Origin: Escherichia coli
GTDB taxonomy: Bacteria > Pseudomonadota > Gammaproteobacteria > Enterobacterales > Enterobacteriaceae
Length of the DNA: 64,000 nt
Reading direction: 5' to 3' (one strand)
Assembly: GCF_003334765.1 (NCBI RefSeq)
Contig: NZ_QOWT01000020.1
Shown here in pieces: positions 8,150 through 13,158 of this stretch. Under the pieces are notes generated by a model. The model did no database searches. It saw only the letters and a list, made by a program, of their open reading frames with translations, and was not told where the DNA came from. Every line of letters begins with the position of its first letter. Positions within the stretch are counted from its first letter, which is position 1. The position numbers were made by a program, and so were the translations under genes.

Positions 8150-8823
8150 CAAACGTTCTGATTGTTGAAGATGAACAGGCTATTCGTCGCTTTCTGCGCA
8201 CGGCGCTGGAGGGCGACGGGATGCGCGTCTTTGAGGCCGAAACGCTGCAACGCGGCTTGCTGGAAGCGGCAACCCGTAAGCCAGATTTGATTATTCTCGA
8301 TCTCGGCCTGCCCGATGGTGATGGGATTGAGTTTATCCGCGACCTGCGCCAGTGGAGCGCGGTGCCGGTGATTGTGCTTTCCGCACGCAGCGAAGAGAGC
8401 GACAAAATCGCCGCGCTGGATGCCGGAGCGGATGATTATCTGAGTAAGCCGTTTGGCATTGGCGAATTGCAGGCCCGTCTGCGCGTCGCATTACGCCGCC
8501 ACTCTGCCACCACCGCGCCCGATCCGCTGGTAAAATTTTCCGATGTTACCGTCGATTTAGCCGCCCGCGTGATTCACCGGGGTGAGGAAGAGGTGCATCT
8601 CACACCAATTGAGTTCCGCCTGCTGGCGGTGCTGCTCAACAATGCCGGAAAAGTACTCACCCAGCGCCAGCTCCTTAACCAGGTGTGGGGGCCAAACGCG
8701 GTCGAACACAGTCACTATTTGCGTATTTATATGGGACATCTGCGACAAAAACTGGAACAGGATCCCGCCCGCCCACGCCATTTCATTACTGAAACCGGTA
8801 TTGGCTATCGGTTTATGCTTTGA
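8146..8823 (+). CDS. kdpE: Response regulator KdpE (OmpR family)
   Basis: 225-aa protein [17 protein letters not shown]...; ATGTGA overlap with the kdpD stop. Confidence 0.96.
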   Translation: MTNVLIVEDEQAIRRFLRTALEGDGMRVFEAETLQRGLLEAATRKPDLIILDLGLPDGDGIEFIRDLRQWSAVPVIVLSARSEESDKIAALDAGADDYLSKPFGIGELQARLRVALRRHSATTAPDPLVKFSDVTVDLAARVIHRGEEEVHLTPIEFRLLAVLLNNAGKVLTQRQLLNQVWGPNAVEHSHYLRIYMGHLRQKLEQDPARPRHFITETGIGYRFML

Positions 8824-8860
8824 ATATTAATTTTAATACAGCCTGCCTTTTATTAATTAA

Positions 8861-8888
8861 AGCCGTAATAATAAATACGGCTTTTTAT
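8861..8888 (+). terminator. Intrinsic terminator after kdpE
   Basis: Stem agccgta/tacggct with a 9-nt loop, followed by ttttat. Confidence 0.55.
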
Positions 8889-9038
8889 CTTAAACAACAC
8901 ACAAAAATAACAATTCAATATTTTATATTACTGAGTAAAAAGCTCATCATTAAATAAATTAAGATTGATCATTTTTTATTGATCACCTTCACAGTTCAAC
9001 CGTATTTCCTGGATAGAATATCTTCACCTTCATTCACA

Positions 9039-9296
9039 TCAGGAAAGGTAAATTAAATGGAAAATAACAGCCGCACTATGCCCCATATAAGGCGGACAAC
9101 TCATATTATGAAGTTTGCTCATCGCAATAGCTTCGACTTTCACTTCTTCAATGCCCGTTAGTCTACCGACTAAGGGCACTTCAGCGTACAGGTCTTCCTG
9201 ACTCTCTGTATTACAGGCATATGCCTGTATTCCGCAGTGCTCATTCTCTGTTAACCCTTGTATTATCAGCCACCTGACTGGTAAGGGTTTCTGCAT
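9039..9296 (-). other. 85-aa ORF antisense to the speFL leader (ybfK-style annotation); probably not a real gene
   Basis: Track ORF MQKPLPVRWLIIQG...; it fully overlaps speFL and the speF leader on the opposite strand and has no convincing RBS. Confidence 0.2.
9057..9161 (+). CDS. speFL: Ornithine-sensing leader (arrest) peptide SpeFL, 34 aa
   Basis: ATG 9057 preceded by aggaaagg; translation MENNSRTMPHIRRTTHIMKFAHRNSFDFHFFNAR, then TAG; sits about 260 nt upstream of speF. Confidence 0.8.
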   Translation: MENNSRTMPHIRRTTHIMKFAHRNSFDFHFFNAR

Positions 9297-9418
9297 TCTG
9301 AAAAAAGCAATCTACCTGATTTATTTATCAGCGGGGTAACTTTGCTTTTTTCCGGCACGATCGATTTCTCATTCGAGAAATTGAGGACCTGCTATTACCT
9401 AAAATAAAGAGATGAAAA

Positions 9419-11617: not shown

Positions 11618-12933
11618 GTCAGGCTAAATCGAACAAAATGGGCGTCGTTCAGTTAACCATACTGACGATGGTCAACATGATGGGCTCCGGTATCATCATG
11701 CTGCCGACAAAGCTTGCCGAAGTCGGGACAATCTCAATTATCTCCTGGCTGGTGACAGCCGTAGGCTCAATGGCACTGGCATGGGCATTCGCAAAATGCG
11801 GTATGTTCAGCCGTAAATCAGGCGGTATGGGCGGTTATGCCGAGTATGCTTTCGGTAAATCCGGTAACTTTATGGCGAACTATACCTACGGCGTCTCACT
11901 GCTGATTGCTAACGTCGCGATTGCTATTTCGGCGGTTGGTTACGGCACCGAACTGCTCGGCGCGAGTTTGTCGCCAGTGCAGATTGGTCTTGCGACCATC
12001 GGGGTGCTGTGGATTTGTACCGTGGCTAACTTTGGTGGTGCGCGCATTACCGGGCAAATCAGTAGCATTACCGTGTGGGGGGTCATTATTCCGGTCGTCG
12101 GTCTGTGCATTATTGGCTGGTTCTGGTTTAGCCCGACGCTGTACGTTGATTCCTGGAATCCGCATCATGCACCGTTCTTCAGTGCGGTAGGTTCTTCCAT
12201 CGCTATGACGCTGTGGGCTTTTCTTGGTCTGGAGTCTGCGTGTGCGAATACTGATGTAGTGGAAAACCCGGAACGTAATGTGCCAATCGCGGTACTCGGC
12301 GGTACGTTAGGTGCGGCGGTGATTTATATCGTCTCCACCAACGTGATTGCCGGGATTGTGCCAAATATGGAGCTGGCAAATTCAACGGCACCATTTGGTC
12401 TGGCCTTCGCGCAGATGTTCACGCCGGAAGTGGGTAAAGTCATTATGGCGCTGATGGTGATGTCCTGCTGCGGTTCGCTACTTGGCTGGCAGTTCACCAT
12501 TGCCCAGGTGTTTAAATCTTCATCTGATGAAGGCTACTTCCCTAAAATTTTCTCCCGTGTAACCAAAGTGGATGCACCGGTGCAGGGAATGTTGACCATT
12601 GTGATTATTCAGAGTGGATTGGCACTGATGACCATTAGCCCGTCGCTAAACAGTCAGTTCAACGTGCTGGTTAACCTGGCCGTGGTGACCAATATCATTC
12701 CGTATATTCTGTCAATGGCGGCATTAGTCATTATTCAGAAGGTCGCTAATGTGCCCCCCTCAAAAGCGAAAGTTGCAAACTTTGTTGCTTTTGTTGGCGC
12801 GATGTATAGCTTTTATGCGCTGTACTCATCCGGGGAAGAAGCCATGCTGTACGGTTCCATCGTGACCTTCCTTGGTTGGACACTGTATGGTCTGGTATCA
12901 CCACGCTTTGAACTGAAAAATAAACACGGTTAA
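11614..12933 (+). CDS. potE: Putrescine/ornithine antiporter
   Basis: 439-aa polytopic membrane ORF MSQAKSNKMGVVQLTILTMVNMMGSGIIMLPTKLA...; ATGA overlap with speF. Confidence 0.95.
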   Translation: MSQAKSNKMGVVQLTILTMVNMMGSGIIMLPTKLAEVGTISIISWLVTAVGSMALAWAFAKCGMFSRKSGGMGGYAEYAFGKSGNFMANYTYGVSLLIANVAIAISAVGYGTELLGASLSPVQIGLATIGVLWICTVANFGGARITGQISSITVWGVIIPVVGLCIIGWFWFSPTLYVDSWNPHHAPFFSAVGSSIAMTLWAFLGLESACANTDVVENPERNVPIAVLGGTLGAAVIYIVSTNVIAGIVPNMELANSTAPFGLAFAQMFTPEVGKVIMALMVMSCCGSLLGWQFTIAQVFKSSSDEGYFPKIFSRVTKVDAPVQGMLTIVIIQSGLALMTISPSLNSQFNVLVNLAVVTNIIPYILSMAALVIIQKVANVPPSKAKVANFVAFVGAMYSFYALYSSGEEAMLYGSIVTFLGWTLYGLVSPRFELKNKHG

Positions 12934-12944
12934 TAAAACAAAGT

Positions 12945-12980
12945 AAAAAAGGGCGATTGAATGATCGCCCTTTCTGTTTG
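12945..12980 (+). terminator. Intrinsic terminator after potE
   Basis: aaaaaa-gggcgat-tgaatg-atcgccc-tttctgtttg: GC stem followed by a T-rich tract. Confidence 0.65.
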
Positions 12981-13017
12981 TTGGCAAATAGTTCGTTATT
13001 TATGCCGCATCCGGCAG

Positions 13018-13158
13018 ATGTAGGGTCTAAACGCGATCGAACACAGCAACTATTTGCGTAATTATATGGGGCATCTGCGACAAAAACTGGAACAGGATCC
13101 GGCCCGGCCTCGCCATTTTATTACTGAAACCGGTATTGGGTATCGGTTTATGCTTTGA
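13018..13158 (+). repeat. Diverged direct copy of the last ~140 bp of kdpE
   Basis: 13018-13158 aligns base-by-base with 8684-8823 (the kdpE 3' end through the TGA), roughly 90 percent identical by eye; same orientation. Confidence 0.85.

Follow-up and report, generated by a model that had tools for sequence, protein, structure and literature searches.

The ybfI pseudogene behind speF-potE as a probable recombination scar between two kdpE-pgm haplotypes of Escherichia coli

The second copy of the kdpE 3' end that lies behind speF-potE in Escherichia coli is already known as the annotated pseudogene ybfI, and it is probably (at roughly two chances in three) a non-functional recombination scar by which a haplotype carrying speF-potE was joined to a haplotype in which kdpE was followed by ybfG-ybfP. 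The window analysed here is the whole stretch of 64,000 nucleotides of E. coli DNA. Within it kdpE, an intact response-regulator gene of 225 aa (8146..8823, plus strand; ORF list; 100% identical to the annotated KdpE WP_000186076.1 locus), is followed on the same strand by the leader peptide gene speFL (9057..9161; coordinates mapped from the W3110-P annotation and sequence read), the inducible ornithine decarboxylase gene speF (9419..11617) and the putrescine-ornithine antiporter gene potE (11614..12933), the last two placed by the ORF list, annotation and species comparison. Further downstream lie ybfG (DUF2625; 13282..13932, plus strand), which is intact in the window and carries a W70* nonsense mutation in K-12, the lipoprotein gene ybfP (13973..14467, minus strand; ORF list and annotation) and pgm (14681..16321, minus strand; annotation and species comparison), the ancestral convergent neighbour of kdpE.

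A repeat search of the whole window returned a single family, in which positions 8680..8824 of the plus strand, comprising the last 48 codons of kdpE and 1 nt, recur at 13015..13159 of the same strand over 145 nt, ungapped, with 90% identity and a spacing of 4335 nt. By blastn the two copies share 90.3% identity with 14 mismatches and 0 gaps (E = 4.3e-53), the MAFFT alignment is concordant, and the other 55 kb of the window contain no other match to the kdpE region. The repeat is therefore real, as the preliminary description had claimed, and the alignment shows it to be neither short nor of low complexity; the roughly 12 mismatches given there become 14, and the boundaries of 8684-8823 and 13018-13158 shift by a few bases. 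The left edge of homology is at kdpE codon 178 (CAG), and the right edge is 1 nt past the kdpE TGA. The distal copy, here called kdpE', lies 40 nt 3' of the potE terminator hairpin (12946..12975). Only speFL, speF and potE are found between the copies; no IS, integrase, excisionase, transposase or mobility gene appears among the ORFs and annotation of this segment, in agreement with the earlier statement that IS and integrase signatures are absent. No terminal inverted repeats were found at the ends of the bracketed segment, and the repeat itself is 145 bp long, not the 2–14 bp of a target duplication.

The distal copy is the curated pseudogene ybfI (b4636) of K-12 MG1655, which the MG1655 and W3110-P annotations place between potE and ybfG; its MG1655 coordinates, 716721-716870, correspond to window positions 13009-13158, and it is 100% identical in K-12-derived genomes. 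The PGAP label for the same stretch is a partial pseudogene of a winged helix-turn-helix domain-containing protein, missing N-terminus. In the kdpE frame the distal copy reads QM-stop-GLNAIEHSNYLRNYMGHLRQKLEQDPARPRHFITETGIGYRFML-stop, and 41/47 residues are identical to KdpE, with a stop codon and five amino-acid changes. Codons 1-177 are missing, and with them the receiver domain and the greater part of the DNA-binding domain; the stop is an in-frame TAG at the third codon of the fragment. In-frame homology running to the kdpE stop, the disruption and the position of b4636 identify ybfI as a KdpE-derived pseudogene, and its earlier reading as a non-coding remnant of the kdpE 3' end holds. The existing annotation is silent on the direct repeat around speF-potE, on polymorphism within the species and on origin, and literature searches (ybfI, ybfG, ybfP, and horizontal transfer of speF-potE-kdp) found nothing on this fragment in the searchable library.

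The history of the locus was followed in 80 species-representative loci of Enterobacterales and in 5426 E. coli genomes. kdpE and pgm are directly adjacent in 35/80 species loci, an adjacency that is ancestral across Enterobacterales, and speF(-potE) stands between them in 29/80; speF-potE is thus an accessory module inserted between kdpE and the gene that ancestrally adjoined it, as had been proposed. The GC content of speF-potE (48–52%) is lower than that of kdp and pgm (55–61%). Within E. coli, speF-potE is present in 5038/5426 genomes (about 93%), and the kdpE-pgm gap, a hotspot of insertion, takes the form of at least five structural haplotypes: T1, kdpE-speFL-speF-potE-kdpE'-ybfG-ybfP-pgm, found in the window, in K-12 and in about 34% of genomes; T2, kdpE-speFL-speF-potE-pgm, found in about 59%; T3, kdpE-ybfP-pgm; T4, kdpE-pgm; and T5, kdpE-ybfG-ybfP-pgm, found in 2/5426. 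kdpE' is present in 1827/5426 genomes (~34%; absent from 66%), and it occurs only in E. coli genomes that also carry ybfG-ybfP. Meanwhile, speF-potE occupies the same site with no duplicate of the kdpE tail in E. albertii, Citrobacter, Enterobacter, Kluyvera, Lelliottia, Atlantibacter and others; in all, the repeat is missing from the 29 species loci with the module and from about 3200 E. coli genomes (about 59%) that carry it, and potE abuts pgm with no fragment in the E. coli loci L002 and L003. A second kdpE tail was not found outside E. coli in the 80 species loci (tblastn with the 47-aa C-terminus; blastn with the fragment), nor were relatives without speF-potE found to carry both copies. 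Neither ybfG nor ybfP was found at the locus in other species among the 80 loci, even at E = 1e-3. ybfG is an acquired gene, since it has no close homolog outside E. coli, its nearest non-E. coli homologs having 57% identity or less; matches of 88–89%, considered as a possible donor, were rejected as frameshifted E. coli alleles of a diverged long-form clade.

kdpE' arose once, within E. coli, because every kdpE' clade sampled has the identical left junction and shares four private changes, namely the TAG stop, T12, A34 and A47. It is nearest to Escherichia kdpE alleles (88–91%), and other genera reach 84% or less. Of the 14 differences between the copies, 7 are synonymous and occur as polymorphisms among intact Escherichia kdpE alleles, and the CCG..CGG..CCT..TTT block of kdpE' is identical to the kdpE alleles of Santai and GPEC60; the divergence between copies amounts to pS 0.255 and pN 0.055. 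The preliminary description regarded the distal copy as a decayed remnant, which fits the TAG stop and the five amino-acid changes; simple decay, however, does not explain the divergence, half of which consists of synonymous polymorphisms already present among kdpE alleles. These allelic differences could also post-date the event through allele replacement at the functional kdpE, so that they are no proof of a difference between the copies at the outset.

These data also bear on the possibility that the original insertion of speFL-speF-potE at the kdpE 3' end left the repeat in an old event, after which the distal copy decayed in place. In favour of this, the module lies between the two copies, interrupts the ancestral kdpE-pgm adjacency and has a GC content below that of its flanks, and the distal copy has its stop codon and five amino-acid changes; however, the module sits repeat-free at the same site in other genera and in most E. 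coli genomes, the fragment is restricted to genomes with ybfG-ybfP, and half of the differences are allelic. The fragment is far younger than the spread of the module across genera, because it retains 90% identity as against 84% or less for Citrobacter kdpE. An origin of the repeat in the original insertion is therefore quite improbable, and neither the claim of an old insertion event nor that of a footprint of speF-potE acquisition could be upheld; the fragment arose once in E. coli and is tied to ybfG-ybfP.

The private changes of kdpE' are distributed differently in its two clades. In the window clade all 7/7 lie within the first 47 of 144 nt (P = 4e-4), and the last 98 nt differ from kdpE only synonymously, whereas the sister clade decays over its whole length. 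Because all private changes sit in the first 47 nt, the sequence suggests that the 3' remainder of the window copy was later gene-converted. A retained function would be another reason for this pattern, with the 3' part under selection as a 30-aa peptide from an internal ATG (MGHLRQKLEQDPARPRHFITETGIGYRFML), a regulatory RNA or part of the ybfG promoter; overlapping the region is a weak Rfam match to MicX, which at 34 bits stays below the gathering score of 75. But that very stretch is frameshifted by a 1-nt deletion in the sister clade, where it also has non-synonymous changes; the fragment is missing from two-thirds of E. coli; and ybfG of T5 has retained its own upstream region although no pseudogene piece precedes it. 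No Rfam family reaches its gathering score, promoter-like matches are at chance level (2 found, 1.4 expected), and the Rfam and promoter/terminator scans gave no sign of ybfI function above threshold. A functional fragment is thus very improbable.

The sequences on either side of kdpE' point to a join between two haplotypes. On the right, the AT-rich intergenic stretch 5' of ybfG (13159..13281, plus strand) is identical to the sequence directly after the intact kdpE stop in strains CUWW10 and GF4-3, so that kdpE' and what follows it are collinear with an intact kdpE-ybfG junction, as expected of a displaced 3' end; a chimeric query made of the kdpE 5' part, kdpE' and the start of ybfG matches that junction in both strains. 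On the left, the potE-proximal terminator hairpin Ta (12946..12975; loop GAATGA) has diverged from the potE/pgm terminator, of which it is a copy, and is closest to the form in E. albertii, and the pgm-proximal hairpin Tb (14635..14665) has the form that the remaining E. coli haplotypes all share; this difference in allele is expected if two haplotypes were joined. Between Ta and kdpE' lies X1 (12973..13015, plus strand), 43 nt confined to genomes with kdpE' and alike at 36/43 positions to the ybfP upstream sequence X2 (14487..14529, plus strand), which runs into REP/BIME sequence (about 14520-14616). X1 ends in a 12-nt REP-like sequence, GCCGCATCCGGC, immediately before the novel joint, which reads …GCCGCATCCGGCAG up to the point of joining, and full REP/BIME elements flank the region. 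The joint is one and the same in all kdpE' clades sampled; its microhomology of 3 nt (CAG) is weak, and the adjacent X1 duplication complicates it. Tandem duplications joined at REP sequences were reportedly described by Shyamala et al. in 1990 for Salmonella and E. coli. The present joint resembles such join-points in following directly after a REP-like sequence with REP/BIME elements nearby, but differs from them in that the REP at the joint is incomplete and the partner lies inside a coding sequence, not in another REP.

In the proposed scheme, a segment ending in speF-potE and its terminator would have been joined to codon 178 of a kdpE that then directly preceded ybfG-ybfP; the join would have been illegitimate, adjacent to a REP and made once within E. 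coli, giving T1, with ordinary homology in kdp or pgm presumably anchoring the opposite end of the exchange. Homology-facilitated illegitimate recombination of this kind has been demonstrated in E. coli (PMC3240628). The displaced kdpE tail would have become a pseudogene, gaining the TAG and the three other shared changes before the haplotype diversified, and may later have exchanged sequence with intact kdpE alleles, which would account for the converted appearance of the 3' two-thirds of the window copy. The kdpE-ybfG-ybfP parent and the polarity of the exchange are likewise inferred. Identities along kdp, speF, potE and pgm are mosaic, which is compatible with flanking homologous exchange and not specific to it.

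Among the 5426 extant genomes no unambiguous ancestral parent was found; the T2 type is abundant, and at least one of the two T5 genomes is derived from T1. CUWW10 was rejected as a surviving ancestral T5 parent, its flanks being identical to the window and the strain thus T1-derived; GF4-3, also T5, is a mosaic; and KL53, considered as an ancestral T5-like parent, was rejected as an IS1-associated deletion. A parent with potE-Ta-X1 and without kdpE' was not evident either, the genomes with X1 (1759) not exceeding those with kdpE'. An apparent breakpoint at query positions 5054-5060 in short-form genomes was discarded, as there the distal copy aligns to the resident kdpE tail.

The 43-nt X1/X2 duplication beside the joint is not accounted for by a simple two-parent join. 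A kdpE-ybfG-ybfP parent would not be needed if ybfG-ybfP entered 3' of potE and replication template-switching copied the kdpE tail and the 43-nt X sequence locally. The complex junction, with its duplicated terminator, duplicated X1/X2 and REP-like sequence, speaks for such local copying, as do the lack of a convincingly ancestral kdpE-ybfG-ybfP strain and the acquired nature of ybfG. However, the copied piece ends exactly 1 nt past the kdpE stop and then continues into the sequence that follows intact kdpE in GF4-3 and CUWW10, a boundary that is the natural conserved/variable boundary of all haplotypes and is not expected of a random template switch; in addition, the two terminator copies are different alleles and not fresh duplicates. 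We consider local copying unlikely and prefer the join of two haplotypes.

Such a join has parallels among known systems. Orphaned 3' gene ends left by cassette displacement have been described for T6SS and Rhs loci (PMC5361080), and in Rhs/CDI/T6SS effector-immunity arrays, as here, a new cassette comes to stand behind an intact gene and the old 3' end is displaced downstream together with its genes, as a truncated remnant that yields a direct repeat of the gene tail; for the arrays, homology-facilitated illegitimate recombination is given as the cause (PMC5361080). Unlike these arrays, in which toxin tips are diversified recurrently and under selection, the present case is a single event at the gene of a housekeeping two-component regulator; no array has accumulated, and the genes displaced here, ybfG and ybfP, are not known to have any connection with kdpE. 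The locus also resembles the attachment-site repeats of integrative elements, in that a direct repeat of a gene 3' end brackets an accessory module of different GC, but no integrase, excisionase or mobility gene lies between the repeats, the module is repeat-free in most lineages, and the distal copy adjoins an accessory module other than the bracketed one.

As an annotated pseudogene whose origin fits a well-known kind of recombination scar, ybfI has little importance beyond housekeeping. It does correct a tempting inference, as the repeat neither dates nor explains the acquisition of the acid-resistance/polyamine module speF-potE, and a kdpE-pgm hotspot with at least five E. coli haplotypes is relevant to pangenome graphs and to the use of K-12 as reference for the locus.

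The repeat pair can itself recombine, deleting speFL-speF-potE. Removal of exactly one 4335-bp repeat unit from the window gives the sequence of strain CUWW10 (4882 nt compared, 99.86% identity, collinear; one strain), and therefore the repeat can mediate the loss of speF-potE; 145 bp at 90% identity suffice for an occasional clean natural loss of a 4.3-kb metabolic module. It is rather unlikely that the two kdpE tails form an active recombination pair and not a dead scar, in which the acid-inducible speFL-speF-potE would be reversibly losable through excision at the repeats, as seen in CUWW10, and gene conversion with the functional kdpE would make ybfI a reservoir or sink of kdpE C-terminal alleles; if this were true and deletion frequent enough, it would contribute to the 5–7% of E. 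coli without speF-potE. The longest identical run between the copies is 29 nt, yet the crossover giving CUWW10 would need to lie not there but within the final 19 identical nt.

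In the window, kdpD (5423/5465-8149) is followed by kdpE (8146-8823), speFL (9057-9161), speF (9419-11617), potE (11614-12933), a kdpE-like fragment termed kdpE' (13015-13159), ybfG (13282-13932) and, on the minus strand, ybfP (13973-14467) and pgm (14681-16321); the segment 8100-14000 is 100% identical to strain 300709. A repeat search found one long direct repeat, pairing 8680-8824 with 13015-13159 over 145 ungapped nt at 90% identity and a spacing of 4335 nt; MAFFT and blastn were concordant (14 mismatches, 0 gaps, E=4.3e-53), and the kdpE region had no other blastn match in the remainder of the window. 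The preliminary description, which had reported a recurrence of the kdpE 3' end, was thus right to within a few bases. The repeat extends from kdpE codon 178 to 1 nt past the TGA stop, and translation of the distal copy in the kdpE frame gives QM*GLNAIEHSNYLRNYMGHLRQKLEQDPARPRHFITETGIGYRFML*. The curated MG1655 record lists it as the pseudogene ybfI (b4636, 716721-716870), between potE and the ybfG pseudogene, and the label that PGAP gives it in further genomes is 'winged helix-turn-helix domain-containing protein; incomplete; missing N-terminus'; because it is already annotated, there is little new in the object itself. The searchable literature yielded no paper on E. coli ybfI, name matches being to a Bacillus subtilis gene.

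ORF state, distribution, Rfam and a promoter scan provided no supporting evidence for a function of kdpE': it is truncated, has an early stop, carries a frameshift in a sister clade and is missing from two-thirds of E. coli, and its promoter-like matches are at chance level only. No Rfam family reached its gathering score in the scan. Two weak matches, to MicX over the potE terminator and kdpE' (12936-13121, plus strand, 34.1 bits where the gathering score is 75) and to naRNA4/CssrE on the REP beside ybfP (14484-14548, minus strand, 41.5 against 59.5 bits), most likely arose by chance or from the REP sequence.

Across 5426 complete E. coli genomes, searches showed the stretch between kdpE and pgm in five layouts. 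T1, kdpE-speFL-speF-potE-kdpE'-ybfG-ybfP-pgm, is the layout of the window and K-12, kdpE' with its flanks being present in 1827/5426 genomes (34%); T2, kdpE-speFL-speF-potE-pgm, is found for example in APEC O1:K1:H7, UTI89 and O157:H7, and here potE and pgm lie just 56–62 nt apart and share a single terminator; T3 is kdpE-BIME-ybfP-pgm, T4 is kdpE-BIME-pgm, and T5, kdpE-ybfG-ybfP-pgm, was seen in two genomes and one IS1-associated variant. Given that speF-potE is present at ≥80% coverage in 5038 of the 5426 genomes and missing from about 300–390, these counts and those of kdpE' put T2 at ~59% and the speF-less layouts at ~5–7%. The kdpE stop codon (8821-8830 in the window, with the bases after it) follows the haplotype: it is TGA in T1, T2 and T5, which bear speF-potE or ybfG, and TAG in T3, T4 and E. 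whittamii, where kdpE lies beside ybfP or pgm and the stop is followed by GGG(G/T)CTGAAT and a BIME.

All haplotypes part from one another at, or a few bases from, the kdpE stop codon; kdpE' retains that boundary and then continues into the ybfG upstream region, and in strains CUWW10 and GF4-3 the sequence directly past the intact kdpE stop is exactly that after kdpE'. This correspondence suggests that kdpE' derives from a kdpE that formerly lay directly upstream of ybfG-ybfP and whose tail was displaced. Moreover, the bidirectional potE/pgm terminator, single-copy in the other E. coli haplotypes, occurs twice in the window as two different alleles: the potE-side one (12946-12975; GGGCGATTGAATGATCGCCC; loop GAATGA) resembles the E. 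albertii potE/pgm terminator, and the pgm-side one (14635-14665; loop CTTGCGAC) resembles the one shared by all remaining E. coli haplotypes; such a pair is expected from the joining of two haplotypes. The favoured mechanism is homology-facilitated illegitimate recombination, in which one end of the exchange would have been anchored by homology in kdp or pgm and the opposite end would be an illegitimate join beside REP-like sequence. This process has been documented in E. coli, though it is rare (PMC3240628), and it has been invoked for the orphaned 3' gene ends of T6SS and Rhs loci (PMC5361080).

A KdpE-anchored scan of species-representative genomes, with 10-kb flanks and the window proteins mapped on each locus, yielded 80 loci. 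In 35 of them, kdpE and pgm are adjacent and convergent (Pantoea, some Serratia, Dickeya, Buttiauxella, Mangrovibacter, Franconibacter, several Citrobacter, E. whittamii); speF(-potE) lies between them in 29 (E. albertii, C. sedlakii, C. amalonaticus, Kluyvera, Enterobacter, Lelliottia, Leclercia, Trabulsiella, Atlantibacter), another insert in nine (other Serratia, Yersinia, Pectobacterium, Entomohabitans, Klebsiella sp.), and pgm is not within the flank in seven. These layouts point to an ancestral kdpE-pgm adjacency, with speF-potE as an accessory cassette of patchy distribution. In line with its insertion beside kdpE, as the preliminary description proposed, the GC content of speF-potE is 48–52% against 55–61% in kdp and pgm; that of ybfG-ybfP is lower still (43–46%). 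None of the loci outside E. coli among the 80 carries ybfG or ybfP, none has another kdpE tail, and kdpE' is nearest to Escherichia kdpE alleles (88–91%; Citrobacter and other genera ≤84%), which argues that it arose within Escherichia, long after the spread of speF-potE. The proposed insertion and the reading of the distal copy as a dead remnant stand, but the repeat cannot be kept as the trace of speF-potE acquisition, as speF(-potE) is repeat-free in the loci of other species and kdpE' is confined to E. coli; the repeat is best read as the mark of two haplotypes having been joined later, within E. coli. In Enterobacterales generally, the gap between the convergent genes appears to be a hotspot for insertions, given the unrelated inserts of 1.2–7.5 kb in Entomohabitans teleogrylli, Klebsiella sp. 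BIGb0407, Yersinia thracica and four Serratia loci. At the Pseudocitrobacter faecalis locus, the kdpE-pgm gap contains a SpeF-like gene (3251-5476, 81% identity), pgm starts ~70 nt after it and potE is not detectable; part of the cassette may have been deleted there.

The kdpE' alleles of the window clade were compared with those of a diverged clade (LR-28, SBF22, GPEC60-33-648 and four further contigs), which are 93–95% identical to them. The left junction, …GCCGCATCCGGCAG|, is the same in all alleles compared, as are the TAG stop, T12, A34 and A47; kdpE' therefore arose once, and it had already been inactivated when the haplotype began to diversify. Of the 14 differences separating the window's two copies (pS 0.255, pN 0.055 overall), seven (positions 33, 57, 87, 93, 96, 105 and 126) are synonymous and also found in intact Escherichia kdpE alleles, and the block CCG..CGG..CCT..TTT is identical to kdpE of Santai and GPEC60; the other seven are private to the pseudogene and all lie in its first 47 nt (P=4e-4 under a uniform distribution). 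In the sister clade, private changes extend over the full length, with a 1-nt deletion. Most simply, an intact kdpE allele would have replaced the 3' two-thirds of kdpE' in the window clade, either by gene conversion or by crossing over within the repeat; a later replacement of the resident kdpE allele is the alternative. Either way, half of the divergence is allelic rather than due to decay, and the ~10% divergence, earlier taken as the sign of an old event, does not date the decay.

The joint itself is more complex. X1, the 43 nt ending at the left junction of kdpE' (12973-13015), is a diverged direct copy of X2, upstream of ybfP (14487-14529; 36/43 identical), and a simple two-parent join leaves this duplication unexplained; none of the E. 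coli genomes searched has potE, the terminator and X1 without kdpE'. X1 and X2 each run into REP-like GCCG(C/G)AT(C/G)CGGC, with the centre inverted between the copies, and in the diverged clade X1 is closer still to X2. In the window, ybfG (DUF2625) encodes 216 aa without interruption, and in K-12 W3110/MG1655 it is a pseudogene (W70* plus G108V), so the window does not derive from K-12; the nearest YbfG homologs outside E. coli are ≤57% identical.

None of the three strains with a T5-type layout is a clean ancestor: in KL53 an IS1-associated deletion spans the kdpE terminator up to ybfG, GF4-3 is a mosaic, and CUWW10 is 100% identical to the window in kdpD-kdpE and 99.8–99.9% in ybfG-ybfP. 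Taking one 4335-bp repeat unit out of the window gives a sequence with which CUWW10 is collinear over 4882 nt, with 6 mismatches and 1 gap; this near-identity indicates a recent derivative that lost speFL-speF-potE cleanly through the repeat, with a crossover in the last 19 identical nt. The recombinational activity of the repeat, in putative gene conversion and natural speF-potE loss, is a by-product of mild interest. The cassette itself is mosaic: comparing the window with APEC O1:K1:H7, identity is 88.9% in speFL-speF and 97.5% in potE. In B2-type strains the region between kdpE and speF, with the sequence around speFL (8824-9418; 5725-6412 in the APEC O1:K1:H7 locus), occurs as a second allele that differs strongly, is ~90 nt longer and has an extra annotated 44-aa hypothetical ORF overlapping speFL. 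The kdpE-pgm interval has been remodelled repeatedly (CUWW10, KL53, GPEC60, EC11), with IS200C inserted between ybfP and pgm in GPEC60-33-648 and an ISVsa5 insertion in EC11.
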